The notes beneath the pieces are model-generated. The model worked only from the letters and a program-made list of their open reading frames with translations. It made no database searches and was not told the DNA's origin. A stretch of DNA of 61,983 bases, counting the filler, from Collodictyon triciliatum (lineage: Eukaryota): assembly GCA_043381765.1 (NCBI GenBank). It is 9 parts of 9 records of this genome, joined end to end, with 100 filler letters (N's around TTAATTAATTAA, not from the genome) between each part and the next. Parts side by side here need not be neighbours in the genome. Positions count along the whole stretch, not along the records: positions 30,175 to 37,615 come from JBHJMP010003897.1; 8 more parts are not named here. The stretch is one strand, 5' to 3'. Within the stretch, counting starts at the first letter, position 1. Every line of letters starts with the position of its first letter. The translations under genes were made by a program, and so were the position numbers. Of the stretch, positions 23,609 to 59,875 are shown piece by piece.

Positions 23609-26600
23609 CACTAAAGCCCGATAACTCTTTGCATTTTTCGCTTGTAAACATATTGATGGTGCAGAGAAAGAGCTTTGTTGAAGAAAGCAGAGATTCTGCG
23701 TTCATTTTTGGCTCAGTATGGATCGAATACTTCATCACACGAGACAAGTGACGCTGGTCAATTCCCTGATCGACACCGAGACCATAGCCAAAGAGGTCAT
23801 GGGGTCTTTGACGGCCAATACAACTCTGAGAACTTTGAATTCCTTTCACCTCGTTCCGACTTAGTTGCACCCAACGTAAGTTCTTTTCTAATTCACTTTG
23901 ATGATACTTCCATACCTTTCGCGTACATTTTATGAAGCACATACGACGAATAGCTTTATTCAAGTTTGTCTTCAATTCAATTCAATCAAATTCATTTATT
24001 TTCTTCCCTTTTCCATAAAATCTTATGTAATATTAATCTGAAAACAAATTTCACTTCAGGAATACGAGTTACTGAAGGATTTAGTCGAAAGTCAAAAGAG
24101 AGACATTGAAATGCTGGAGGCAAAAGTGAAGTTTGTAGAGATCGATTTTAGCCGAAAAAGTGAAGAGTACATTGTTCTTGCGGAACAGTATAACACTCTG
24201 AGTGACATGTATGCCCAACAAACAGAGTATGTACGAACATTAGAACAATCTAGTGACGTTGATGGAGTTAGCGATGCACATACCCCCAACGGACCGCAAC
24301 GGAGCACCAGAGGGCTTTCCTATGTACCAACTTCAGCATTAATTATGGACCGTAAGTCTAAATTATTATAAATTTATTTATTTGTGGATCAATTAGGCTA
24401 TTTGGTTAAAATAACATGGTTTCCCGAAACATACATCAATATTCGCTCTAATTTCTCTTATTACATATGTGCAGGTGATATTACCGATGAAGCTGAAATG
24501 ATTAGCCTAAAATCAAAGCTTGATGAAACGAAAAATGAATTAGAGAAAGCAAGACAAGAAATTGTAGCACATCATGATACAAAAGTCAATCAAGAATCTG
24601 CCATTCAAAAGCACATGGTCGATAATCAGGCCTTACAACAAAAGATTCAGCAGCTACTCCTAGAGAACGAGCAGTACTCTAAACTCGTAGCCGAATCTAA
24701 GGCACATTCTAACCAGCCTTCCGTAGAGGAGCTTCAGCAGGCTATCAAGCAGGACCAAAAAATCATCAAAGATATGCAAGATATCATACAACGTTCAATC
24801 CAAACTATCGAGAAACACAATGCGAAGGGTCGACCGCAGAACTATCAATCACCTTTGGACGTTGCACGATATCTCGAGTATCTAATAGAGGGAGTCCTCG
24901 GGTATCTTAACGAACAATCTGAATTTGTCCTTGGAGTATATGAGGAACTCGGGGTTGAAACCAGCCATCCGATGAGTGTTTTGTTGAGCAAAGTTGCAGA
25001 ACTGAAGTCTAGTGAGACATCGAACAGGTCCCAGTTGTCAATCACACAGGCTGAAAAACGTGATTATGAAGCAGGAACGGCGCGAGTACGGGCCATCTTG
25101 AAAGAATACGAGGAAGAAAGCATCGCGCTTCAGGAGACCGACAGTATTCGAATGGGCGAATTTTCATCCTTAAGTGCATTAGCAATTGGACTCAAGAGTG
25201 AACTAGACACACAAAGATCCAAACGTCGTGATATAGAAGGTCTCTTGAAAGAACAAACTCAAAAGATAACTCAACTCCAAGAGCATAACCAGAACATGCT
25301 GGTAACACATAGAGCACTTGAATCAGAGTTACGAAAGGCAGAATCTAACCATCACATTCCTGAAGTACAACAGGCATACATTTTCTTGTGTCGACGTATT
25401 GCACATGTCTCTGCTTGTCTTTTGGGCACCCCAGAGTCTCCAAATACATCGACGACATTGGACGATGCTGTTGTGGTGGCAGAAATGGAACATAATTGGA
25501 CAAAGATACAACAGCATTCTGATTCATTTATAACTTTTAATCGCTTTCATACAAATTTGCTACAGTCGATCAAGAAGTGCGTTGAGAAGAAGGCTAAAGT
25601 TTCGGATATCTGGGCACATGATAATTTGCCTGAGGAAATCCCATCAGGGTTACTACCCACCCACTTGTGTTCTATTCAGTGCATTCTTGAGTTACGGCGA
25701 TATCTGGATATTTATGACCAATATATCGGTCAGCTCCAAAGAAGATTGACGAAAGAAGGTTATGGAATGGGTCTTGCTACATCCTCTTTGACGACGGAAA
25801 CTCTTGAACATGGGGTGACATCATTCCAAGCACTCGAGATTATTCAAGAAGCCCTAGCTTCTTTTGAGACAAAGTACTCAGGGTTGGAATCTGACATCGT
25901 TTATCTAAAAGCAACTCTTGAATCTACGTCACCACCGACCGATTCGCCAGTAGCTCAAAAGAATAGCACGCTTGCAATTCATTCAAGCAAGACTGTGGTA
26001 GCATCAGAGGCGAAAGAATCAGACATCCCCCGTCTCTTTGAAATCATCCAAGAACTTGAGAACAGGAATGTAGAGTTGGAAGCTCTGGCCAGAGGCAGAA
26101 CCCGTAGTTTGAATATTTCTCTTTATTCAGAGGATGGCCATGTACCAAATAATGAAGTAAATCCAAGCTCAGACGTTGACCAAAAGGATGAGTTATCTGT
26201 TTCAGAGCTATATTCTCTAATACAACACCTCGAGTCTCAGAACACAGCATTAGAGAGTGAGGTTATACGGCTGAGACAAATAGAAACTGAATTCCATGAG
26301 TCGAACCAAGAAGGAAGCCCAAACACAAACGAAGATATCCGGATTCTGACCGCTGAAGTGGCTCGCTTTCAAATGAATCTCCACGAGCTACAAGCAGAGA
26401 ATGAGTACTTGAAGAGTCAGAACAAAATCAAAGAAAACGAAAATATTGAGGCGTGGGCATTAGCAGAGGAGCTTTCTGAATTACATGGCGTTATGAGTGT
26501 CCTAAAATCAAAGAACACGAGGCTGGAAAATGAGGTAATTCGTCTACAAAATGTAGAAAGTCAGTTGGCTGTGTTGGACCAATTAGAGGATGAGAACACT

Positions 26601-28953
26601 AGACTCCGCACCATAGCCGCAAAATATGATCAGCTTCAGAGTACTTTTCGCCAAATGGACTCCTCTGGAGCACAATCAAAAGAGCAAGCTGCGAACCTAC
26701 AACAACAAAATATCCAACTTCAGGAAAAACTCAAGTATCTAGAAGAGTACGGAACACCCAAGTTTCTTGAGACTGAAAATAGCTCTATGAAAGAAAAATT
26801 GAAAGAGTTGGAGTCAAGCATCCTTGCATATGATACAAGAGCACATGATCTCGAAGCTGAAATATCTCGCTTGCAAGAAATTGAGGGCCAATTCACACGA
26901 ATGCAAAGAATAGAAGCGCAGAACGAGACCAGCCGCATGCATACTCTTCAGAGTCAAGGTCACCAAATTAAAGAGCTCGAAAAAGAGATTCATAGACTCA
27001 AACAAATAGAATCTGAAGCTAAACAGATTGCAGGATTGGAGCAAGAATTGGGACAATCCAACAAAACGCTTTTTGAAGCTAACAAACAACTCGAAGTAGA
27101 TATTGAAAGTCTTCGAAAGTCTGAGTCAGAAGTTGTTCGTCTCCGCGGGGTCATACAAGAATACGAGGGTTTCAATTCGAACCTGAAGTATGAAATAGAC
27201 AGTCTTTACAAGGAGAGCCAAGCCCAAAAGGAGACAATCACCTCCCTTGAAGAAGAGTTGGCACGCCACCAGGTCGAAACGGAATCGCAAAGGTCTCATC
27301 ATGTGAGTACAGCCAAAACTTTGAAGTCCACCAATGACGAACTGCAGTCGCAAGTCTCTAAATTATCCTATGAAAGTTTAGTCCAAAAGGAGGTTATTCG
27401 CAAGTTAGAAACTGAAAACACTAAGCTCCTGGAGTTGAATCCAGAGTTAGAAAGCCAAAGAGACGCCACTAACCAATTCAAATCTCGCAATGCCGACTTG
27501 ATTTCAAAGAATGCGGCATTAGAAAAAGAAGTGAATGAACTGTCGGAGAAAACACAAAAACTACTAAACCGTAATTCGATTCTAGAGGGAGATGTTCAAC
27601 GCCTGCGGGAAGAGCTTTCGGAGATAAACTCGACTCCCTCTCAGAGAGACCCGGATCTTGTTCGGTTGAGAAATGCAGACCGTGAGTTGCGCCAAGAGAT
27701 TTCTCGTTTGGAGGCCGAAAATGTGCGGCTAGAGTCGGAAGTTTCTAGACTCAAAACACTGGTAGAGAGACTGACCCAGGTTCGGTCTCTAGAAAGCGAG
27801 GTTGATCGGATGAAGCACGGTGCTGAGTTGCAGCAGATTCAGAAGTTGAGAGAAGACATTATCCACCTCTCAGCAATCGAAGGAGAATTGGTGGAGGAGA
27901 GGAACCGAGTTCGGACGTTGGAAACAGAGAAGCAGGTTCTCCAGCATGAAAACCAACAGGTTCGCAAAGAGCGCGACTTGTTCAAAAACTCATATGACTC
28001 CTTGCAAGCCGACCACATTCAGTCGCTGGACGGCATGGAAAGCCTCCGCCTGAAACTCAGAGATGCGCAGGAGTACGGGCGCAAAGAAAGCACGGAGCGC
28101 AACAAACTGATTGGGGAGGTCCAAGACCTTACGCAACAGCACGAACAATTGATACAGATGCAAAAATACCAAAAGCAGCAGCAGAAGGAAATTGCCGTGT
28201 CTGAGGATGAATCCTCCGCCCAGGACGAAAAAAAGGCTCCTGGCGAGCACTTGCAAACGTCATTCACAGCCAGCACTCAGTCCTCTCTGCAGCACACACC
28301 ATCGTCTGCATCCAGCTCCACTACTACCATCATCATACCCTCTGTGATTGGAGCCGCATACCCCGCGCCTTTGCACATTCCTTTTGTCTACTCGTCACAG
28401 CCTCAACAACAGCCCCATCCTTACCCTCTTTCCCAGCCTGCCTACTCCATCCCCCGCGTCCTCTCTGCTACACCATCATCAACACCAATACCGAGTCCCA
28501 GCCCGAGTCCCAGTCCAAGCCCAAGCCCCATGCATCACCGGCCACTGCCCCAGTTCGCCCCGTCCTCGTTCGACCCAAACACGCCGAGAACACTGCACCG
28601 CAGCGGAACATACCACACAGGGAACATCTCCACGAGCCACGCCCCACAATTCCCGCCAATATCCTCGCCCTCAACAGCGAGCGGCCTCGACTCTGACCAG
28701 GCCCCGATGCAGCGGTCCTTCTCGTTTGTCACTGCCCCAAACACATCCGATCTCCTTGCTTCCTCCAGCACATCAACCTATCGCTCCTTCAACTCTGCCC
28801 AGCTCGACGCCGCCATGCAGCAAAGTCCACGCACATCCCTGCAGAGACACGGGTCAGCCCAGCTGGTCCCATATTCTCGTATCCTGCTCCAAGACGGCCC
28901 ACAGAGCTCCATGGCCTCGAAACCGGCGGCAGTCCAGCTTCAGCTTCAGCCCC

Positions 28954-28984
<31 letters not shown>

Positions 28985-29309
28985 GCAGCAGCAGCAGCAG
29001 CATCAGGCGTTCACTGTCGCTTCTCCATCTCTATCTCCATCTCAGACTTCCACTCCGACCCTTGCTGAACTCACGTCCCCGCGATACACTTCACCATCGA
29101 TTCGAGGTTACGTCCCGTCAAACTCAAACCCGACTGCGCTTCAAGGCGCCGGGCCCCATGTCCAGGTTGGGCTGTCAAATGCGACTGGGCAATCTGCTGC
29201 GCGCCTACCAGGCACCGGAAGCTTCTCGATGATTCCTGTCTCCAGCGGCTCGGCGCGTCAGGGAAACACGCAGACGTCACATTCTTTGCCACGGACCACC
29301 AACTCATAA
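23185..29309 (+). CDS. Large coiled-coil protein with Pro/Ser/Gln-rich disordered tail (>1700 aa); 5' exons approximate
   Basis: Short upstream exons (e.g. 24060-24351 EYELLKDLVESQKRDIEMLEAKV...), then a ~4.8-kb terminal exon (24475-29309) rich in heptad E/K/Q/L with a polyQ/PS tail and TAA stop. Confidence 0.85.
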
Positions 29310-30074: not shown

Positions 30075-30290
30075 NNNNNNNNNNNNNNNNNNNNNNNNNN
30101 NNNNNNNNNNNNNNNNNNTTAATTAATTAANNNNNNNNNNNNNNNNNNNNNNNNNNNNNNNNNNNNNNNNNNNNACATAAAAAAACATAAAAAAAACATA
30201 AAAAAACATAAAAAAACATAAAAAAACATAAAAAAACATAAAAAAACATAAAAAAAACATAAAAAACATAAAAAAAACATAAAAAAACAT
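29978..30290. repeat. (TTTC)n and (AAAAAA[A]CAT)n repeats flanking a spacer
   Basis: Seen directly at contig ends. Confidence 0.9.
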
Positions 30291-30339
30291 TTTTTTAATC
30301 AAATGAGCTCATTTTTTTCTTTTCAAAAAGATACTAACC

Positions 30340-33300
30340 ATAGTATTCATTCGAGAAAATGTATTGCACATGACCAGAAATTTTATCAAGAAGTTCATAA
30401 GGTATATCTTTCAGGGAAGCCATCTCTCTGTATTGCGAAAGACTCAAATCCAAAGAAACGGATGATTGTATCGCAATGGTGTTGTCAATTTTTTTTGCCA
30501 GATCAAATATCGAGATAAGCAAGTTGTTCTGGTCATACCTTTTTGTTATACTGATTGCCCTAGAGAATGATACTAATTCCAATGTTCCAAGACAAAACAA
30601 CCGAGCCATGTCTAAATTACCCTCATTTAAATATATTCTTGCACGGTTATTGACAAACAAAAATAAAGCATTGGATAGCGAATCTTGAGTACTGAAATAA
30701 AGTGGATCAACCTTGATAGTGAAATTATGCACTCGATCGCCATTCTCAGAATCAATCACGTGAACATAAGCATGAACATCTACTTTCTGTTTTGAGGGAG
30801 TAACTACACCGTCGGTTATTTTGAACATTTTTCTGGTAAGCACAAAGTTGCAGTCAGATTGCAGTTGTGGGTTTGTTATTGGAGTCATTTCATTATTGGT
30901 AGGATTGTAGTAACCGAAGGCATATAATAAAGGGGAGTATCCTTCAGGTGAAATCCAATCTGTTGCAGATATGTATGTAATTTCCATTTCTGAAGAGCCT
31001 GGAGATACAAAAGCGAATCCCTTTGAAGGTAAACTGCTAGTCAAAAAATTCCAAGCTGAGAACCCATATACCTTCGTGACCAAGTCTTTGCAACTAAAAA
31101 TGATCTTATATGGTGTAGCTTCTAATAGGGAATTCGCAGGAAGATAATATATCTTTCTCGTTTGTCGTCCAATGTCACACAATTCCTTAAACTTGAAAGT
31201 TTCCTCTAACTTCCATGAACAAGAAATGTCATTCAATTTTGTCGAATGGAAATGTCCCCCGATAATTGTATCAATAGTGACTATAGGCTTTCTTTGATAA
31301 TTTTGAAGTATACTCAAAGATGTTGGCGGGACATATCCCTCGACTATAGTAATCATCTGTGAGCTTGAAGCTCCCACAGATTTTGCAACGTCAATTATTT
31401 TGAGTGTGATTTCATAAATACCAGGGCTAAAAATCGTTTGATTTGTTTGGGGAATAATCAATATAGGGTTCACATGACTCGTAGCCCAGAAATTCGAAAT
31501 AACGGAACAATTCTTTCCGACGTAGTTCACATCGATTGAAACCAAAATTTTGCAGGACCATAGATATGAGAAATCAGAATTTGGTCTGCCTGGGTCATCC
31601 ATATCCCCAGACTCAGAAGCATTAAAAGCTATCTTATTCATAGTTCCATAGATGGTAGAAGTTCCACCTGAGATCACAGCTTGAATGCCTCGGGATTGGA
31701 CCGAAACTTCAATCTCTGAATTAGAGCATTCATGTCTACTTTCGGTCAATCCAGTGCAAACAAAAAACTGAAACCTGTATATTTGGCCGGGTTTCATAAG
31801 CTTTGCTGGCAATATTAAGATTTTTTGTCCGAGAATATTTTCTGGGAGGTTAAGGTCGGATCCAAAGCCTTGCCTCCAGAAAAACCACACCTTTTGATCC
31901 CATAGACAGGGAGGTATTTCATATTCTCCAAATAATTGGAGCTTTCGATGAGGTGAAGTAACAACTGTTGCTCCGTTTGTAATCCAAGATGTAGGAATGG
32001 AAGTATTCGTGACTTTAAATTGTAATTTTGAAATATATGTGCTTCCAATCCAGTTCTTTAACTTCAACTCCAAAACAAAAGTTGTACTCATCGGAAGCAA
32101 AGCACTATCTATTTTGAAATTAGGTGTGTTACTGGTCACATATTTTTGTTGGGGATCTATGTAAGGACGGAGCACAGGACCCTCATTAGATGTTTTCAGA
32201 GTCCACTCATATGAAAATGGACATGATGCCGATCCAATAACAGAATAAGGTGAAAATGAAGCAACTGAGCAATTTCCTACGATCGATGGTCCAATCAAAT
32301 TGAAACGGATAGATGGTAGAGGTCGTAAAGTGGACTTGATGAGGAGACTTTGATGCACTTGTTTGATACAATCATGATTTTTATCCAACCCGATGACGGA
32401 TTTACCAAGGGGTGAAATTCTCAGGTAATCGTCAACAGGTACGTATGAGTTGCACGTCAAGTGTAGAACCAAGATATGATAATCTACATACGAACACCTT
32501 GAAACATCGATATTGTCAAAAAAATTCACACATGTCCTAAAAATATCCAAATTTGAGTCGCCTTCGTAAATTAGGCTGATATTTATCAACTTTAGCTTCC
32601 AATCAAAAACGACGCCTTGAAAGGGGACTGTAATGGCGCATGAATTTTTTGCTGGAGTAAAGACGTGACTTCTTGTGAAAGATGTACTTGGTGTTGGGTT
32701 ATCATGTATTGAGGGCGTAGTATTGTCCACTCGTTCTAGTTGAGACATAGATGCCTGCTGAGTTCCATGTTCTGTTCGATAAATAACCAATTAATATTTT
32801 TTCTTCCAGATTAGATCACAAGGGTCGTGACTTTATTGTATTTAAAAACAAAAACAAAAACAAAAACAAGAACAAGAACAAAATGACATAAACTGCAGAT
32901 AGTAAAACTAAATATTTTTCTTTCTCTAAGTGATGGAATGAGCCATATAGTATAAAAATAATTGCAGAATGTAATAGATTTAGTTTGTACGAACCGATGG
33001 CAGAGCTGGCAAGTTTCTTTGTTTTTGTAGGGTCATTAGATGGGGATGTATATTGATAACCTCCCTGCGATTGAATAATTTCAGAGTATGGTGATTCCTT
33101 TGACTGACGTGTTTGAAAGAGTTTACTATTAGATTCTTCAAACGATGGATCATGTAGTTTGGAAGTAAATGTAGAGACAGCATGTGAATATGGACTGACG
33201 GTACTTTTGGGATAGGTAATCGAGGTTGTGTAAAGGATATTGATTGTCATAAAAGAGACGAAACGACCGTCAATTCCTTGGTAAAGGGTCAACTCTCTAT

Positions 33301-36300
33301 CGTTACCAGTGTTTCCAAACGCATCAAATGTTACTAATTGTACAGAAAATCCAATTTTTTCGGGGTTCACTGATTCTCCTTGTATACTATATGTCCCGTT
33401 CATCAAGTCTTGGCATTCTATAGAAAGTCCTCCATCAATAATTTTCTTATTCTTACCTTTGGTAACATCCATATTCTTGTTGAATTCAGTAATAATTACA
33501 CCAATGAACTTTGTTTGAGATGTGGAATAGCTCATGTCAGCGTTTTGCGAATGAATATTTATTTGTAGTGGTTGGCTAGGGTTCAACGGCATCGCCACAT
33601 CGACACTGAAGAATCGCCATTTGTTTGCGAGTACTCGAATAAGATAAACAGCGTCTTGTATTTGAACAAGATTGTTTCTGTCTGCATCCATTTTTTGTAA
33701 CTGGAAATCAGCTATTGGGGATACAACCAACCCAGCGAGATATTTCAAGGTAAATTGGACATCGCCAACAGAAAATTCGCAGTCCCCATCTGCATTACCC
33801 ATGATATTCGATGGAGTGCATGAAAGAGTACTGGCCCTATTGGACACCGCCTTTTCTAAATTTACGTAAGAGGCACTCTTGTCAACCCCGTACGATAAAC
33901 TGCCTTTTGAACTGTTTAGATTGCCGCACTTGATCCAAACAGACCCTGAAACAAATTTTCTTGTCTGACCGGGACCCAAAGGTGCACCAATGGGAGTGGC
34001 AGATATATCGTTGGAAAGGAGTTTAGCGATATACCCCGTCACATGGTGTATGCCATCTTGATGGCATTGAATAGAAAAAGACAAAATATCAAGTATTCCA
34101 CTAGAAGATGCAGAGGGACTCGTAGCTCCCACTATTCGTATAAGCCCTGGAGGGTCATTTAGAGTAACTTCTAATTGACCTCCCGGCCAGTGCGGGCCCA
34201 CGGTGTATGTAGACACTCGAATTTTGTCCTGGTCATAAACCAAGCTGATGTCTAAGCTCCCAAGGGCTACTGATCCAGTGTTTATACGTACAGGCACACC
34301 TAGATTTGATCCAACGGCCATATCGCCAAGCGGAGGGCCAACTGTGCTTCCGATGTCTACATCACCAACATCTGGACTAAGATTTGCAAACGTTTTTGAC
34401 GTACCTTGAATTCCATAACATGTAGATGCGGATAGGTGAACAAAATATTTAGAATTTCCTTTTATTGTAGCTTTTCCCACATCGTCTATTACGATAGAAT
34501 TAGGGTCATCGCTTGAATAGGTAAATAGATTGCTGATTAAATGACTCGTCGGATGAATGGTGTCATCTTCAAAAACAGCTTTGGAGAGAAGATTGTTGAT
34601 TGATGAATCCAAAGTAGACGAGTAAGTAGGCGGAAATGAAGTGATTACAGTTGTGCATTTGACAGTCTCATTCAGAATTTGTATATTTACTTGGGAATTT
34701 TCTGAAAAGTAAGAGGCAACCACTATTATGTATCCAAACTCAAGTCCACTCGGTATTACGACTCCTTGATCACTTATTTGTGCAATATTTGTAAAATTGC
34801 TTTTGATTGAAAATACGGCTTGTGCCTTTGAACTAATATCCAGAACTCTTTGGTCAGAAAGAATCATAAACAAAGAAATCACCGTACGTTGATAGACTTC
34901 TGTGCACTTGTATCGCTTGAGTTGAGTAAGTGACCTCCTGTAAGAGCCCGGGTATGAAGGATAGGGAGTAGACGTTATATTTAAAGATAAAAACCCAATT
35001 ACTTGGACATGCAGTATCCCCTGGACCTCAGGAGCGTTTGAGGTAGTTACACGAATAGCTGCGTCCCCAAACCCATTTCCAGTAGCTGTAACATAAACAC
35101 TTTTTTCATCTTCTGATTTTTGCACCATAATCAAATTATGTGGATCCTCACCAAAATCATCATATTGAGTTCGTAAATCAAGGGTGTAGTCAATTTGTTT
35201 TCCATTCTCAAAGACGCATAAAACATTAAGTGTTCCTCGTGATGCAGTCTCAACAGTTGTTGCGAGGTCATGTATATATGCAATTTTGGAGTGACTACTT
35301 GTAACGATAATTTGAATTATTTTCGGCAACCGAATTGAGACGACCCCTAGGCCTGTCCCGAGTAATTTTCCACAGGAACTCCACGTAGCATTGATAAATT
35401 TACCACACCCACGTGAATTTACAATGACCCTTGGTGGTGATTTATCTACAGAAATTGCAGTACTTAATGAAACTATCATCAATCCTTCCTTTTCACTAAT
35501 ATCTCTCTGCATGCCATCTGAAAAACGGACATATGTCTTGATGTATCCTTCTCTACCCTCAAAATCCAAATTCTGTTCAATTTTTGTTGTCAGCTCCCAA
35601 GCGCGCATAGGCCCCAAGAAATCATTTACTGCCATCAAACTGGTTTTTATATCTGTAAATACCACTGGTTGCACAAATTCTACCAAGACCAAATCATCGC
35701 TGACAGTGATTTCGACGCTATTAGATGGGTAGCCATCTAGTTTAAGTAATGCTTTACCTGAAGTAAGACCCTGAATAATGTTACCGGTGACTTGTGCTAT
35801 ACTTGTGTTGGATACATATAGTATACTATATTTTGATATATCAGCAACAAAGTTTTCTTCACCATTGAAAAAAAAGACACTAATGCTCACTGGGCTTGAT
35901 TGATACTGCGGGTGCATACAATCGTGTGATTTGAAGTCCTTGATTTTGTTCAGTATAGTATCTTCCACTGAAAGAGCGGCTGGACCTCTCGGTTGCCATA
36001 TATGCGCAACGGTAGATGCATTTTGGTAATTAACGCGCAATAAATGCGTCAGTTTTTTCTCTTCACCTGAAAGAATGACAATACATCCATACATTAATTT
36101 GACGTCTGCGTTTGTGCTAGAACACATAGATTGTCGAGTGATATCAGCTGGCTTTTGGAATTCGTAAAATTCATAAACTATAAAGGGGATGGTAATGTCT
36201 TGTTTGGTGAGGACAGCAATATTGTTTACATGGAGTGTTTGAGGTCGAATAAAATGCCCTCTAACACTATCTTGGCCAACAAAAATATAGCCAATACTGC

Positions 36301-37615
36301 TAGATTGGATCAAATCTTGTACCACTCCATCTGAATTATCAGCCACTATCGGAATATTTCGCACATCAGTCATTTGCCTTATGATCATTTTTACAGGTCC
36401 TTTCATAGTTTCTGACGTATCCTTGATTTTCCATGATATAGTCGCAACACTAACAGTCCCTGAGACAGAAACATCGCTAATACCATTCTGTCTGGTCCAG
36501 ACAATAGATGCGCTGGAGCTTTGAATGTTAGTAGCCCCAGAAAACTTACCATCTCCAGAGATACTGGTAATGGACGCCACATTTTCGGGGAACTTTATCA
36601 ACAAATTAATTCCTTCTAAAAGTTTACCACTGGTGAATGCTGTAAGAGTTGATGTGAACGTATGAAGGGGAAGACAAGGTTGTTGGGGTAGTTGGAGTAT
36701 CATCCCAAATTTTGGTGGCTCGGGATAAATTGGGATGGATATTAGAGTAGTTACTGTTAAAGATATTGTCCTATCCGTAAATGTCAATTGTGGTGTTAGC
36801 GTTGTGTTTCTTGTAGAGAACAATTCTGCAGGAATCTTAATCATCGCAATACATGGTAAAGCGCCGTCGTAAATGCAATTTGCAACCAAAGAAGGGTACT
36901 CCAAAATCCAGAAAATAATACTACCTCCTTGATTGTTGGTCTCTCCTTTGGGACCAATTAACCAGGCTCGAACAATAATAAAAGGAGACGGATGATATAT
37001 TAGCGTAGAGATTGTAAGTCCTTGGGGTTCAACAGGTCGAATTTTTACAAAAGGTATTAATCTGGGTGCGGAACTGACCTCCCCAAGACTCACAGTTATT
37101 TGAGATTCTGGATAAGAATCAACTATCCCTGCGAGATTTTGTTTATAGAGTCCTTGCTCGTTAACTTCAATTTTATCATAAATGAAACCGGATGATATCG
37201 GTAAAATATTGAATTGCAATTGATGGTCCAGTTCCGGTGAGGCACAAATATTACAGACGTTCAAAACTTCACCAATCGGACAAACGGTAGCATTTGAGGC
37301 ATGGCGGTGTGTTGGTTGAGGTGAGAGGTTTGAATTAGAAAAAAACATTTGAGAGTGAGAATAAGGGTAGCCTTGAGATTGAGATTGAGATTGATATTGG
37401 GAAAGAGATTGTGATTGTGATTGAGATTGAGATTGATATTGGGATTGTGATTGTGATTGTGATTGTGATTGGGATTGGGATTGGGATTGAGACTGGGATA
37501 GAGATTGAGACTGGGACTGAGACTGAGACTGAGACTGAGACTGAGACTGAGACTGAGACTGAGACTGAGACTGAGACTGAGACTGAGACTGAGACTGAGA
37601 CTGAGACTGAGACTG
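30340..37615 (-). CDS. Fragment of a giant extracellular protein: (SQ)n linker, TMEM132-like cohesin + Ig-like domains, further Ig-like repeats, second cohesin, dockerin, S/T linker, REJ (polycystin-1-like) region; open at both ends
   Basis: Two long ORFs (37348-32816 and 32790-30334) can be joined by a phase-1 GT-AG intron at 32994-32772. TMEM132-like motifs: HIWQPRGPAALSVEDTILNKIK, C..QYQSSPVSISVFF, LDFEGREGYIKTYVRFSDG. Cohesin VPVRINTGSVALGSLDISLVYDQDKIRV (~34315-33960). Dockerin GNADGDCEFSVGD...MDADRNNLVQIQDAVYLIRVL (~33800-33620). REJ-like AVISGG...NASESGDMDDPG...FSYLWSC. A further GTTAG donor lies near 30338. Confidence 0.82.
37375..37615 (-). repeat. Coding (CAR-TCN)n hexamer repeat encoding (Gln-Ser)n
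   Basis: In frame with the 37348 ORF with no stops. Variation is mostly synonymous (caa/cag; tct/tcc/tca). Confidence 0.7.
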
Positions 37616-37715: not shown

Positions 37716-37834
37716 CATACATACATACATACATACATACATACATACATACATACATACATACATACATACATACATACATACATACATACATACATAC
37801 ATACATACATACATACATACATACATACATACAT
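37716..37834. repeat. (CATA)n microsatellite at contig start
   Basis: Seen directly. Confidence 0.95.
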
Positions 37835-37893
37835 AAGCTTCGCTTAACTTTCAGTACAAAAAAAGAGATTAACAAAATAATAAATTATTTCAG

Positions 37894-38477
37894 CCTCGCG
37901 TCCAAAGGATGCCTTTACACGGTCGTTCGACATCCAACCAGCGACATACACGTCTTTGTCACACACTTGCAGGCAGGCTACAAGAGACATCGCGACGTCG
38001 CAACATCTCAACTATCCGAATTAACAGCATTCATCCGGGCAAAGACTGCTCATTCCCGCAACCCGATTCTATTACTCGGCGACTTCAACATCGACGCCCG
38101 AAATCCCCAAGAAAAAATCGACATTGATTTGTTTTGCGAAGGTGCAGGCCTTTGTGATTCTCTCGTGTGGAAGTCAGGTGATGCGCGGCCTTCCACATCG
38201 CTGAACAAGGACCGCTGCTCACTGGATTACATTTTCTTCCGAGCGGAACTTTCCGACATGAGTCCTGCGCGCTCTGCAATTCATCCACACTGGTGCAACG
38301 AAGGACTCTATTACATGGGTGCACTTTCAGACCATTCTTTGGTGGAGACCACGTTTCAGCTGCATCAGGCAAAAAAGACACCGGTGTTGCGTCTGGATTC
38401 TGTTCGCGCTTCAGAATCAATCACACTACCAAGTCAGAGCGCCGCACAGAGACTGGAGGCTGATTCGGCAGAGGCAG
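37894..38477 (+). CDS. Endonuclease/exonuclease/phosphatase (EEP) family, neutral sphingomyelinase-like; internal or last exon only
   Basis: After the TTTCAG acceptor: LASKGCLYT...HVFVTHLQAG...QLSELTAFI...ILLLGDFNID...LDYIF...LSDHSLVETTF. These are the canonical EEP motifs. The exon runs into an N gap. Confidence 0.85.
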
Positions 38478-53508: not shown

Positions 53509-56500
53509 TCAGCGGAAGCTTTTGTATTTTCGCCGGAGATCCTTTGTTGGCAGGGGCGGAAGCGATGCATTCACGTGACGGCCTTGAAGAGGCCCGCTAA
53601 ACTGTTCTGTGGTTTCTGCTGTGGATGGCGCATCCGGCCGAGAAGGTTGCTTTTCCGGCACAAAGGAGCGTGGCGTGGCATGGCTGCGGGGCGAGGAAAG
53701 GCCACTCTGGCCAGGGAGCTTCGAAAAGCCACCGGAAGCCGAGGCAGACACAGACGCTGGTGTGTGAACAGCGCGACCGGGCAAGCAAGCCGAAGGCGCG
53801 TGCGGTGAGTCAGGTTGTGCATCGTGCGCAGAATCCATGATGCGGATGTACATTCGTTCATAGCGCACGGGAGTTTCCTCCTGCGGCCTGGGAGGATGAC
53901 TGGGGTGGAAGAGAACATGAGCAGCATTGGAGGCTGGGTACTTTGCTATCGAGGGCGCTTTGTCTGGGCGCATCTGCTCGCTTTCGTCATGCACCGAGGC
54001 TTCGGTGGACTCATTATGCGCTTTGCCGTGGCTGCGTGGACTCAGATGTGTGTGAATCTCCAGGGAGTCGGTCTGAACAATCACGTACCCGTCGCCATCT
54101 TTCTTCGGGGATGCAGGATACTCTGTGGCTCTTGGTAATGTGTCTACATGTGCTGCGCTGTGATGGTGACCGTCTTCGTGGATGGGCACCGCTAATTGGT
54201 ATTGGTACGGGGTCTCACTTTGATTCTGACTTTGATTCTGACTTTGATTCTGATTCTGATTATGATTCTGATTATGACTTTGATTTTGATGATGAATACG
54301 AGAGTCTCTTGGTTCCGCAGCCTTCCCCATGGAGCGACTCTGTTGAGGGTAGTGCGGTGGGTAGCCTGATAAATTGCCTCTGCTGCCTTGGTGCGTAGGG
54401 ATTGACTCTGTACTAATCCTGCCTTCGATGGGGCGATATGTCCTCACAGATCCGTGCTCCATTGGCGGGTCAGAAAAGGCTTCTACTCTGGACTCGATGC
54501 GTCCGCCCATTTTGTAAGAGCCTGCGTCTCCGGCGGACCTTGTTGGCTTGGACGGGCCCTGGTGTGAGTGCTGATGATATGCTTCGGGTAGTGCGGCTTT
54601 GTATCCTTTAGCACCAACAGATGCACCTTGGAAAAGAGAAAGCTCGCGGCGCAACTCTTCCATGTGGAGCTTATAGTCATCCTTCTGTTTCCTTTCGGAT
54701 ACAAGCTCATAAAGAGTATTTTCCATGCGCGAATGGGCGAGGCTGTGTTCACTAGAAAGCTTCCTATATGCTTCGGAAAGCTCGTTGTATAGAGCCACTC
54801 GCTTCTCGAGCTCAATCTGCACAATCTCTAAGGCCCGGGTTATCTCGTTGTTGCGTGAGAGCAAGAGGCCGATAAAGTATTGAATGAAAACAATTTTTTC
54901 AAGCGCCGTAGATGCCGCAGTATCTTGTTGGCTCTGTTGCATTCCTTTGACGCTGTCATAAATCTCGTTTATGATAATAAAAACACTACTATGGCTTTCT
55001 TCCTTGTTCGGCACAGCACCACTTTCATGAACAGTATGTTGATTGGAAACCTGGCCTGCAGTCAGGCGTGCATTGTGATCGGGCGGACTCAAAAAAGCAG
55101 CAGAACGCGAACGATTCTGTGGCAAAATCGACAAGTTTGCAATAAATGCGTGAATTTCCCTCAACTCTACTGACCTTGCCTCAAATACTTTCTCAGCAAT
55201 AGAGACAGCCTCTGTATTTGGTCCTGGCTGGTCTGCGGCATTAGAAGCTACAATCAGTTCAGCGGTTGCGTGTATCTGATGACAGAATGCTGAAAATGCC
55301 TCCTGATAGAATTTTGAAAGCGAATCCTTCTCTATCATGGCTGATTTCATCTCCTCGAATCGAGCCAATAGCTTTTTGTTTTCCTGAGTCACGGTCATTC
55401 GAAGATTTTCAGCTTCAACCCTGAGTTTGCTTTCTCTATTCGCGATGTCTGTAACTTTAGCTATGTCCTCTCGACTGGATGCCATGATAGAGTTCATGTC
55501 CCTTTCCAATTTAAGACACAAAGCGCGTTGTCCTTGTATGATCTGCTCCTGTTGCTCTGTCTTTTTCAAGGAGTCGTTGTATTGTGCATTCAAAGCCAGA
55601 AGCTGGTCCTCATATTTCCGGGCTTCCTTTTGCATATTCAAGGACATGGCCGTCAGAGGATCCTTCTCCCTTGGGGTGGAATCTAATCCACGGTCAGTAA
55701 AGCTGCGACTCTGGTTTGAGCGAGTCATGTATTGCCCTGTTTGAGCGGAGCTCATGTCTAAAGTCTGAGCAGACAAGTGGTTTGATGGTTGTTGAATCGA
55801 TTTCCCAAACTGTGCCTCTGTGGAATGCCTGGAATCCTGTATGTTATGAATCCACTTTTCTTGAAGAACATTTCGGAGATTGGTGAGGGCGTCCATAGCA
55901 GAATTGTACTCATACTTGTCATATTGTTCCAACGATAGAATTACAAACGTCTCACTTACAAGGCTGATCATGACTAGTTGATTAGTTTCGAATTCCTCGA
56001 TGCGACTCTGTAAAGCACGCTCATGCCTTTGAAGCTCATGTATAGCAGAACTTTGCTCCTTAACTTTGGCCCTCAGTTCCTCATTTTGTTTCGTGGATTC
56101 CTTGTTAAACCCAGACAAAGTTGCTTCCGTTTGGCTCCTTTCCATACGAACACGTGTATCCGCTTCAAGGTGAATACGTGACATCTCTAGCTCTTTCTTG
56201 GCCCAGTCAGCCCTGAGTGTCTCAATAACTCTTTCTTGTTTATCTTTGCAAATATGCAGCTCATCTTTTTCGCTCTGGAGCTGGCGCACCAACGGCTTTA
56301 GTTTCTCCAATTCCTTCACACTAGATTGTAGTTTGATTTTCAAATCCTCGTGTTCCGAACACTGTTTTCGGAGATCATAGATGACAGAGTGGCAAGCAGT
56401 ATGCCAGCAATGGGCAACCTCTTGAGATGCTAGTTGAAGGGGATGGGAAGAGTGTTTCTCTTGTTGAGATATCAAATCGACAGGTAGCTCTGTCCCAAGG

Positions 56501-59500
56501 AGCTCTGCACATCCAATAATCGTACTTTGCAGCCTTTGAGTGGTTGTGGCGTCTAATCGTGGCTGGGCATCTGTGCCTTTCTTTTGCCTTTCGCCTTCTC
56601 TCTTCAAGTCTTCTAGCTGACGCTCATATTGACCGTTTATACCGGCGAGCATCTGAATTTGCTGCTTCATCAGCTCTGTCTCTTTCCTGAAACTAGCCTC
56701 ACGATCCATCATGTTTCGTTGATTAGTGTCCGATACGCTCTGCAACGATGCTTTGATAGACTTTAGTTGGCTATTTTCAAGCAAAGTGGCTTCCAGATTT
56801 GCTTTGAGCTCCATGCCATTTCGTTCAAGTTGCTTCGCATGGGTTTGGAGCTGCAAAAAATGGTCTTGCGACTGACGAGCTAATTGGCGTAACAAAGTAA
56901 TCGTAGCAACTGCTTTGTCTTTGAACGCAGAAATGTCTTTAGGAGCGTTGACATCGCCGTTCCATGTCTCTACCTTATCATAGAAATTCATTTCAGTCCC
57001 AACTAACGTTATGAAATTGAATGTTTCCCGGCAGTACTTTTTGTATTGCTCCATCAGCTCTATATTAGCACTCGATTTTTCTCGATCTTCATAGAGGCCT
57101 TGTTCCAAACTGGCGAGTGCTTTTTTTTGCTCCAATATGAATCTTTGAAAAGAGGCGGAAGCGCTTTGAACAGACGTTTTAAAGTCAAACGAAGCTGGTA
57201 TAAGGACATCTGATGTGTCTGAATTAAAGGCATCTAAGGGACGATTGGCATCGGCATCTAATGTGTGGGAAATATAAGTCACAAACAGGTAGCATATTTT
57301 CATGTTCTCTCGTGCTTCCACGATTTCTGCAGGGTTTGTATTGAGTTGTAAGGATCGTGAAGTAGCTTTCATTTGTGAAGACAGAGTCTCCTCGAGGCTT
57401 TCGAATTGAGTTTGTAATTCATCAAGCTGCTCTGTTTTCACAGCCAACGCATTCGTTATTGTTGCATTCTGCTTCTGCAGTTGAATGAAGGATGTATCAC
57501 GGTCTTGCGATCTTAAATTCAACTCATTGAAGCTGCGCTCCCATCCGACTGATGAATCTTGTAATGTAGCTTTCTCAAGAGCGATTTCCTGCAATTTTTG
57601 ATTGCACTCTTGCAACGTTGCTCTCAGAACGACAACTTCCTCAGAGAGTGTGTGATTTTCCTGGTCTTTCTTATGAAGAGATAGCTGCAGTTCCCTTAAA
57701 ATTCCCATTATCTCTTGACTACTAAAAGTCGAAGAATCTGCCGAAGAAAAGGCCATTTTTTTGAGCTCTTCAAATACGACTTTAGAGTCTTGGCTCTTTT
57801 TTTCAAGGACTTTCCGCAAAGAATCATTCTCTTCAGAATAGTCCCCAGCCTCTTTTGTCTTTCTATCCAAGGCAGCTTGCAATTTTTGGACTTTAGCTTC
57901 ATTAGACTGACATTTCAATCTCAATGTCTCCATTTCCATCTGAAGTTTACTAAATTCACGAGTTTTCTCATCCATTAAACCTTCCAATTCGCTGTTTCTA
58001 TCTTCAATTTCTTGGGAATCCTGGTCTTTTGTTTGCATCAAAACAGATATTTTTTCAAATTTCGAAAGTAGCGCCTGATAGTCATGCGCCTTACTTTCGT
58101 AGCCCATTTTGACTGCCACAAGCTCTTGTTGTGTTTCCTTGAGTTGATTGGCTTGTTGTTCCAACTTCGACTCTAGTTTCTGGACGGTATCGGAGCTACT
58201 GTGTATTTGCTGGTTAGTCGTTTGGAAACTAAGTTTGAGTTTTTCAAGTTCATCCAAAAGTGAGATATTCTCTTGGTTTTTCATTTCGAGTTTGGACTTT
58301 ACAGCGCCAAGTTCATCCGTTAGACCTCTTGCCTCCTTCATTTTAAACTCCAAGTTCCCTCTCAACTCACTGTTTAATCCCATCAAGTCTTGAAATTCTC
58401 GGCTTTTCTTTTCTAGAAGGAGGTTTAGCTCATGCAAGTCGTTTTTTAACTTGGAGATCTCTCTCTGTGCTATCTCGCCAGAAACTAATGCTGGTTCGAG
58501 CTTACAAGAAAGCTCAAGAGCCTCTTTGTTTTTTTCATCCAGTTCTGATTTCAGTTTACTAAATTGCGATGCATTCCTGTTGCATTCTTCAATAAGATCT
58601 TGCATATTTCTCTTGGAATTCTCTACCATTTCTCTCAATGAGGTATTTACGAATTTAAGGGAGCCAACTTCGCCATCCTTCTCCTCAAACATGGCCTGCG
58701 TATTCGATAGAGAATCGGCAAGAGCTTTTCTTTGAGCTTCTATCTCGTGTATTTTTTGTTGCTGCAAAGATATTGCATTTTCCAGATCGATAATAACATT
58801 TTCTTTCTTTATGAGTGTGGCCTCCAAATTCTTTATAGTCACATGAGGAGCAGCAACTTGGCTTAAGGCGCTTTCTAATTTAGTTTCCAAGAATCGATTT
58901 TCCTGCGTGAGCTTTGCAATTTTACCATCGGAATCCTCCTGACTCTTTCTTAATTCGGCCTCTAGCTTTGAGAGGTTTTCAATTTTTTGCATGCATTCAG
59001 ACACTTCAAAATCCTTTTCTTTCAATGCAACTTGTGCGAAATCCACTTCCGAGGCTAAACGCGTAATCTTTTCTTCTTGCTCGTGATTAATTTTCTTGCC
59101 CTTTTCGAATTCTAACCGATACATTTCTGCTTCTCGTTGGGATTCACCAAGACTGGACTTGAGACTTTGGATATCTTCTTTAGCTTCTTTCAACTCCGAT
59201 GCTTGTAATTGGGAAAGAATTGTACCGCTTTCAATCGACACTCTCATTTCGTTAATTTCCCGAATCTGGGGAGCAAAGGATTCAATTTGAGCGTGAAGCT
59301 GCGATATTTTGTCTTTACTGCTCATTATCGATGCGAGGTCCCTTTCGTGCTGGTCTTGCATTTGCTTGATTTGTTGCTCTTGTTTGGTCATCTTTCCATG
59401 AGCTTCTGAAAGTTCAGATGTTGCTTTGTCTCTCTGTCTACAAGCTTCAGTATACTGAACTTCAAGTTCTTTTCTTCTTTGTTCCAATAAAATTATGTCA

Positions 59501-59875
59501 GATTTGGCCTTGTCGAGTTGAAACTATTGAAAATAAGTTTAAGAAAAGTATTGGGAAATCTAAATAAAGGAGAAAAAATATTTGAAAATGTAAGGCCTAA
59601 TATTATTCATCACTATTGGAAGTCATATATCTGAGGATTAAAAAAAAACCTTTAACTGCTCGTTTTCTCTTGAGAGCATATTGATTTGCTCTATATCTCT
59701 GGTCATTTTTTCAACCTCTTCCTTTAACTTTCCGATCTCTTCGGTCAATTTCTCTCGTTCTATGGAGAAGGACGTTTCTAGTTCCTTTAATGGGCCGAAT
59801 TTTTCAGACGAATACATTTGGATCAATTTTGCCATACTATCAGAATATTTTAGCCTCAGTTTATCGATACTACAG
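53509..59875 (-). CDS. Large coiled-coil protein with disordered P/S/Q/H-rich tail (>2000 aa), probably 5'-truncated
   Basis: ~6-kb uninterrupted heptad-rich exon ending in TGA at 53511-53509, plus an upstream exon at ~59875-59650 (IDKLRLKYSDSM...ENEQLK). Confidence 0.87.

Follow-up and report, generated by a model that had tools for sequence, protein, structure and literature searches.

What kind of protein do two long open reading frames (ORFs) on a single contig of the flagellate Collodictyon triciliatum encode, and what could it do at the cell surface? The window, i.e., the whole stretch of DNA analysed (61,983 nt), joins unrelated ~7.5-kb contigs with N spacers, and the gene in question fills one of them, G000:C3897 (JBHJMP010003897.1, positions 30175-37615), where G000 is the eukaryotic assembly GCA_043381765.1 (75 Mb, 14,576 contigs). 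Both ORFs lie on the minus strand; ORF1 (32819-37615) spans 1599 aa and ORF2 (30337-32790) spans 818 aa. An initial annotation had read them as one gene for a protist surface receptor that fuses a TMEM132 adhesion module with a polycystin-like stalk. Our results support that reading, since a third exon, found on another contig, brings the GAIN/GPS region and the transmembrane (TM) segment that had been predicted. The protein runs from an (SQ)n stretch through the five TMEM132 domains and additional Ig domains into a true cohesin and a dockerin; a PKD/REJ region and GAIN/GPS then lead to a single TM helix with an acidic tail behind it. We regard this overall architecture, as modelled, with high confidence.

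The two ORFs join in frame through a phase-1 intron (ATCG|GTTCGT at 32994 and GAACAG|AACA at 32772). The joining itself, proposed earlier, holds, whereas the exact junction is less firm: among the candidate donors 32994 ranks best, and with either of the phase-1 donors at 33060 and 33108 the fusion would be unchanged apart from a shorter linker. The intron (223 nt) is T-rich, with 26.5% GC as compared with 38-40% in the exons. Both ORFs were covered by contigs from two sequencing runs of one study, whose ends carry what we take to be template-switch adaptor; no run cover was found over 32198-32905, and run X3 did not cover the gene at all. Among the variants in the run contigs, 20 of 33 were synonymous (chance expectation, ~25%) and none created a stop, and with this transcription-like cover the coding sequence looks expressed. 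A 275-base joint in run X1 was discarded as an artefact, having a 20-letter side and non-intron ends. In each of two runs, one contig leaves C3897 at the exon 2 donor (30338), and its loose end has one exact match in the genome, on C10345, where the exon sits directly behind an AG acceptor (AAAACAG). This is the continuing contig that the initial annotation had proposed to look for, and its exon adds a GAIN-B/GPS region followed by a single TM helix and ~160 aa of acidic tail. The frame had been described as more than 2300 aa open at both contig ends; the 5' end is indeed cut, whereas the 3' end is closed. The resulting three-exon model comprises 2771 aa with a single stop at its end, the N-terminus being absent, and, the first junction excepted, the structure of the gene is established.

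The domain positions given earlier agreed with homologue mapping and with Pfam (Table 1). Specifically, the second to sixth TMEM132 domains mapped in order to aa 198-748 through homologues and the family profile. Note that direct Pfam TMEM132 scores of the window protein were below cut-off (Ig_TMEM132_4th, E 3.2e-4), and that the second and third domains were placed via homologues. Within the family, Ig_TMEM132_4th was detected in 14 of 16 members and the fifth domain in 6 of 16, and paralogue C1427 gave a weak Pfam Cohesin match on cohesin 1. Residues C112, N119, C121 and C124 of the preceding Cys motif are kept in paralogues. An AlphaFold model of aa 112-830, which bears on the three Ig domains of the TMEM132 part, was all-beta (pLDDT 88.5; Atlas, 0.92), and Atlas neighbours of the further Ig-like region bear Big_2. 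Foldseek of this 719-aa model was of no use as an identifier, returning generic Ig strings only (TM-score <0.2). For the window protein itself, Pfam scored Cohesin at the cut-off (E 4.6e-5) and REJ at E 2.6e-27. The second cohesin and the dockerin, both named in the initial annotation, were borne out by structure matches: cohesin 2 matched 4ums at Z 15.3 and 2vn5 at Z 15.0, with rmsd 2.1 over 129 residues, and the dockerin reached Z 10.8 with rmsd 1.5 over 62/62 residues of 2ccl_B, the Xyn10B dockerin. The Dockerin_1 profile gave one match in the genome, below cut-off; 9 of 12 PDB sequence matches fell on the dockerin segment (cellulosomal proteins, E 0.02-0.5). A PDB sequence search with ORF1 was rejected as an identifier, as it matched the SQ repeat alone. 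The GPS matched Pfam weakly, and its cysteine and tryptophan pattern aligned. A PLAT domain, for which a check had also been proposed, was not found in the three-exon model, nor was a channel part, the single TM being followed by the tail and the stop. Because PLAT and the channel part are absent, the protein is single-pass like SpREJ1, not like the 11-TM polycystin-1.

The gene belongs to a large family that the initial annotation had missed, together with the wide range of the cassette described below, even as its interpretation held. In a genome search, the cassette core gave 38 matches among 39 candidates scored, on 36 contigs, three of which (C6567, C11373 and C5338) have internal stops; Pfam GPS gave 13 matches. 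All complete stalks seen retain the GAIN/GPS cysteines, and most have a TM and a cytoplasmic tail. The H-L-(T/S) triad is kept in 7 of 17 distinct family stalks and lost in 10, as counted with a profile built partly from those same rows. Cassette and REJ share one open frame in 6 of the 13 genomic REJ matches (C3869, C1011, C3396, C2501, C1427 and C2438), and the fusion thus does not depend on intron 1 alone; for five of these six, the final exon was seen to encode a GPS-like motif and one TM. In many paralogues the (SQ)n at the contig end follows a cassette, one open frame on C8473 passes from a first cassette into a second, and on C1197 two cassettes and the pre-REJ domain accompany a signal-peptide-like start. 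The (SQ)n here, correctly placed first in the order, is therefore probably an inter-cassette linker, not an N-terminus, and, judging from these frames, a complete protein probably carries several cassettes in a row on one stalk. In a tree, the window cassette clusters with 17 cassettes mostly ending in (SQ)n, apart from the REJ-adjacent ones, and the window gene alone among the seven cassette-REJ fusions has an intron at this joint; together these suggest a shuffle in the linker. C505 has IPT/TIG repeats inserted ahead of REJ. Pfam matched no cadherin in the paralogues or in the sequenced part of the window protein, whose N-terminus lies outside the contig. As for other uses of the stalk, C2001 (L041:1161-4379) has the same REJ-GAIN stalk behind ephrin-receptor-like Cys repeats, showing that it accepts other heads, and on C1441 (L073:4940-7577) a GAIN/GPS-TM exon is in frame with MFS transporter-like sequence.

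Which cohesin does the dockerin bind? Direct couplings over 168 cassettes placed two cohesin 2-dockerin pairs, S1120-D1276 and V1162-A1330, as the two strongest overall, and eight shuffles of that alignment gave a maximum z of 4.9. Since shuffles destroy kinship, the dockerin was paired with six other domains as a control. Over 142 cassettes, the cohesin 2-dockerin pairs had z of 9.8, 8.1, 6.9 and 6.5, and the best values of the six other domains against the dockerin were 4.3-6.4. The position pair 1162/1330 alternates between G/F (61) and V/A (26), and the canonical binding face presumably includes the coupled cohesin residues. The dockerin is invariably found next to cohesin 2, separated from it by a linker with a median of 35 aa, and a model of aa 1085-1470, covering both and the next domain, had pLDDT 80.5 and pTM 0.80 with a low-confidence linker. 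The dockerins of the closest 20 paralogues are 64-73% identical; for the cassette core, identity is 34-49%. In the genome, 26 of 28 dockerin matches were on cassette contigs, and no free dockerin-bearing enzyme was seen among these 26; the other two lie on short contigs. The couplings support cohesin 2, not the TMEM132-type cohesin 1, as the putative dockerin partner, and we consider it probable that cohesin 2 binds the dockerin, as predicted from this covariation.

We somewhat favour a reading in which the gene encodes a type I membrane protein with one pass, an adhesion receptor that bears tension and whose cassettes each hold a cis cohesin-dockerin clasp. The ectodomain would form a rod built from at least one ~1350-aa cassette, each comprising TMEM132 domains, extra Ig domains, cohesin 2, dockerin and beta domain, with flexible (SQ)n or S/T linkers between cassettes, standing on the PKD/REJ-GAIN stalk and one TM helix. 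The Ca2+-bound dockerin would latch a cohesin 2, most likely its own, across the ~35-aa linker; this latch would stiffen the rod and might serve as a force-release clasp. The TMEM132 part may bind a surface outside the cell, be it prey, substrate or a second cell, and the pull would pass via the REJ-GAIN stalk to the membrane. Adhesion coupled to force sensing appears to us only marginally the better expectation. At the membrane, the likeliest signalling partners would be the many PKD2-like channels of the genome, a pairing that we put forward tentatively and hold to be rather doubtful. The genome has 53 PKD_channel matches, 32 of them near full length without stops, and a polycystin domain was present in 3 of 3 tested channel matches. 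The four longest channel ORFs of the 53 matches contained neither REJ nor GPS, and the search for an 11-TM polycystin-1 was likewise negative among these four. Separately, we observed that the channels (~30 near full length) are mostly in single long open frames.

Several points weigh against this proposal. The junction of intron 1 is covered by none of the run contigs, presumed to be cDNA, and the runs, all from one study, are taken as RNA by a guess, none being recorded as such. The GPS of the window copy scores E 0.0099 in Pfam, below cut-off (paralogues, up to 1e-10), and reads C-R-C-D-G-M-R-S-Y, with G-M-R instead of the H-L-(T/S) triad. Mutation of the H-L-T triad impairs GPS cleavage (PMC3321182), and the window copy is probably not self-cleaved. 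The effective depth of the coupling analysis is ~130, and part of the covariation may reflect shared ancestry; the co-expansion of receptor and channel may be coincidence. In addition, the covariation is compatible equally with a cis latch and with binding to a neighbour. If the dockerin bound a neighbour's cohesin 2, the proteins could form a surface coat or a homophilic cell-cell layer, with the REJ-GAIN stalk as a mere anchor. Tandem cassettes would confer multivalency in such a layer, dockerins nearly identical across paralogues would permit cross-binding, and Foldseek matches of the Ig string include S-layer proteins, with low TM-score. However, the constant adjacency over a short linker favours a cis partner by local concentration, and the single-chain model is compact, so that we regard trans binding as unlikely, though worth serious attention.

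A coat of another kind, i.e., a passive glycocalyx or antigenically varied layer in which the cassette is structural, the stalk degenerate and signalling absent, would suit the size of the family, the long (SQ)n and S/T stretches, the 24 N-glycosylation sequons, the three broken copies and the frequent loss of the triad. We find it improbable, given that the GAIN/GPS cysteines persist in every complete stalk seen, that most stalks keep a TM and a tail, and that the triad is intact in seven. The type-I-like fold of cohesin 2 and the several cohesins per chain recall a cellulosome-like scaffold recruiting secreted dockerin-bearing enzymes to the cell surface; the confinement of all inspected dockerin matches to cassette contigs, and the single sub-threshold match of Dockerin_1, make this extremely improbable. 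Finally, the two ORFs might be separate genes, or an unspliced exon 1 might yield a short form anchored in the membrane by its read-through tail, since the first junction is without RNA cover and intron 1 stays open for 59 codons, ending in a hydrophobic stretch. This hydrophobic end of ORF1 was rejected as a real TM, because T-rich introns yield an identical false TM at the ORF ends of C2438, C2501, C3869 and C5321. Furthermore, ORF2 begins with linker sequence, without a signal-peptide-like stretch, and the six paralogues have no intron at this joint; we thus deem two genes or a short form highly improbable and retain the single-chain adhesion receptor as the preferred reading.

Table 1. Features of the cassette-REJ gene, in window coordinates.
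Feature	Position	Strand	Basis
(SQ)n linker, cut by contig end	37373..37615	-	same repeat after cassette in many paralogues
Cys motif (C-x8-N-x-C-x2-C) and first beta domain of cassette	37031..37282	-	paralogues, AlphaFold strands
TMEM132 conserved region (Pfam 2nd domain)	36740..37030	-	Ig_TMEM132_2nd of P0011, P0018 mapped to aa 198-281
Cohesin 1 (TMEM132 cohesin-like 3rd domain)	36278..36718	-	TMEM132_3rd of P0011, P0023 mapped to aa 302-370
Three TMEM132-type bacterial-Ig domains (4th, 5th, 6th)	35321..36262	-	Pfam in family, mapping, model
About three more Ig-like domains (number inferred from length)	34376..35320	-	weak Ig_TMEM132_6th, E 0.002
Cohesin 2, type-I-like	33920..34363	-	Pfam Cohesin at cut-off; structure match
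Dockerin, two Ca-binding repeats, probable C1266-C1279 disulfide	33608..33820	-	PDB sequence matches, structure, coupling
Conserved beta domain after dockerin, without family name	33230..33604	-	present in 64/153 homologues
S/T-rich linker, end of exon 1	32995..33229	-	33% S+T over whole linker
Intron 1, phase 1, GT-AG, inferred	32772..32994	-	frame, composition, paralogues
Linker and pre-REJ domain, start of exon 2	32323..32771	-	21-25% to paralogues from aa ~1604-1633
PKD-like repeats and REJ module	30673..32322	-	Pfam REJ; K319L-like PKD matches in paralogues
Probable helical GAIN-A region, end of exon 2	30339..30672	-	inferred from REJ-GPS position
Intron 2, 5' part; exon 3 (GAIN-B, GPS, one TM, tail) on G000:C10345	30175..30338	-	run contigs

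How does this protein compare with known systems? TMEM132 proteins have been linked to deafness and panic disorder, and we know of no ligand for their ectodomain. The window protein shares with TMEM132A-E the conserved region, the cohesin and three BIG domains in order, and a single TM (PMC6030884); however, it goes beyond TMEM132 by about three Ig domains, another cohesin, a dockerin and the REJ-GAIN stalk, and ~1800 aa of other domains stand between the third BIG domain and the TM, which in TMEM132 follows directly. In the cadherins coherin, lefftyrin and hedgling of choanoflagellates and sponges, the five TMEM132 domains occur in the same order and as a repeating unit (PMC6030884), whereas the window protein shows no cadherin repeats in its sequenced part, carries the REJ-GAIN stalk instead, and comes from a host that is not holozoan. 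The sea urchin proteins SpREJ1, 8 and 9 likewise have REJ, GPS and one TM (PMC1934368). Relative to SpREJ proteins and polycystin-1, the TMEM132-cohesin-dockerin cassette replaces the lectin domains and the GPS triad is absent; relative to polycystin-1, PLAT and the channel-like TM domain are missing, with one TM instead of 11. REJ modules have been described as elastic, and SpREJ1 antibodies raise calcium (PMC1934368). The folds match type I cohesin-dockerin of bacterial cellulosomes (Z 14-15 and 10.8), with both Ca loops present, but here the two partners are in one chain, and attached enzymes were not found among the matches described above. REJ and GPS also occur together outside animals in the brown alga Ectocarpus (Esi0130_0068), in a protein with 6-7 TM helices and no reported TMEM132 cassette (PMC4700764), and GAIN domains occur in protists (PMC3321182). 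A survey of choanoflagellate G protein-coupled receptors does not mention TMEM132, REJ or cohesin (PMC12716839). In the literature searched, mostly open-access, we found no paper on a TMEM132-REJ fusion, in line with the earlier suggestion that the combination is undescribed, and no TMEM132 outside Holozoa. The protein would function like a hybrid of TMEM132 and SpREJ1, but it does not have all the defining features of either family.

We then asked how far the cassette extends outside this genome. A single-sequence word search was blank, which a profile search showed not to mean absence of homologues: it matched 2149 representatives at E <= 0.001 (607 at 1e-30), the best 150 of which were inspected. 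Among 153 homologues, cohesin 2 was found in 151, the dockerin in 112 and REJ in 3, with none in reversed sequences. In P0001 a single predicted protein carries all parts of the architecture and an unbroken triad; it probably derives from another organism, because it is at most 53% identical to any stretch fetched. P0068 and P0101 have the cassette, long repeat stretches, REJ and one TM. Six of 13 scanned homologues are cadherin-bearing giants with the whole cassette, one cassette protein is named Trebouxia (green alga), and Atlas clusters point to Chordata and Haptophyta. A REJ profile search gave six proteins, none with the cassette; apart from these matters, P0155 (EukProt) joins glycosyltransferase domains, TIG, PKD, REJ and one C-terminal TM, i.e., a REJ stalk carrying enzymes. 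In bacterial genomes, the cassette was present at 13 loci of 96 candidates: five labelled Myxococcales or Myxococcota, four labelled Deltaproteobacteria, one on a 9.3-Mb chromosome, and three labelled Enterobacteriaceae, probably mislabelled. At loci L087-L099, giant Cys-rich surface proteins of Myxococcota genomes contain the TMEM132-cohesin-dockerin cassette in full; L090 has 35 EGF repeats and a laminin G domain in addition. A tree was built with FastTree from 241 cassettes, 41 of the original 282 having been removed because of short cover or duplication (group labels assigned by us). In it, the C. triciliatum family and P0001 group together as a clade (0.996). A separate clade (0.965) holds 17 bacterial or myxobacteria-like cassettes and is sister to 37 non-cadherin cassettes including Trebouxia (0.998). 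A recent transfer from myxobacteria is unsupported, as the family forms its own clade and deep branches are weak; the direction of transfer is not readable from this tree.

Collodictyonid flagellates are predators and sister to Amorphea. The assembly fits such a host: contig C834 is an 85.5-kb mitogenome with nad7-11, sdh2-4, cox11, tatC, atp4, ccm genes and many ribosomal proteins, in which cox1 is scattered over four pieces, cox2 lies on both strands and ccmF is split in two, and a restricted search found one nuclear 18S. The mitogenome of Diphylleia rotans has the same traits, and the other amorphean mitogenomes are without nad8, nad10, sdh2-4 and cox11 (PMC4779616). Since C834 resembles D. 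rotans, the host is a non-opisthokont and probably a collodictyonid. As a further similarity to D. rotans, C834 has a group II maturase.

Sanchez-Pulido and Ponting dated the five-domain TMEM132 architecture to early Holozoa and describe dockerin homologues as undetectable in vertebrates (PMC6030884). The occurrence of the architecture in a green alga, in myxobacteria and in a protist outside the opisthokonts would put its origin further back, and suggests that the published record understates both the age and the spread of these adhesion parts. It is conceivable, if speculative and on balance unlikely, that the cassette predates Holozoa and is a laterally mobile unit that bears force and has a built-in Ca-dependent latch, used by predatory protists, algae and myxobacteria; that the single-pass REJ-GAIN stalks here are receptor subunits of the ~30 PKD2-like channels, making a split polycystin system that senses prey contact; and that animal TMEM132 is a shortened descendant without the latch. 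With a dockerin and a cohesin partner named by covariation, the cohesin question is testable on soluble fragments, and a one-pass REJ-GAIN fusion beside many PKD2-like channels would offer a natural test of whether polycystin signalling started as separate receptor and channel subunits.

Other contigs of the window encode unrelated proteins. An 1838-aa ORF at 1364-6877 (-) has NACHT, pentapeptide repeats and WD40 propellers, as an NLR-like protist protein. A Pfam scan gave no clear family for two coiled-coil ORFs with low-complexity tails, at 24372-29306 (+; 1645 aa) and 53512-59523 (-; 2004 aa). At the start of the contig next to the gene, 37718-38476 (+) encodes an endonuclease/exonuclease/phosphatase fragment.

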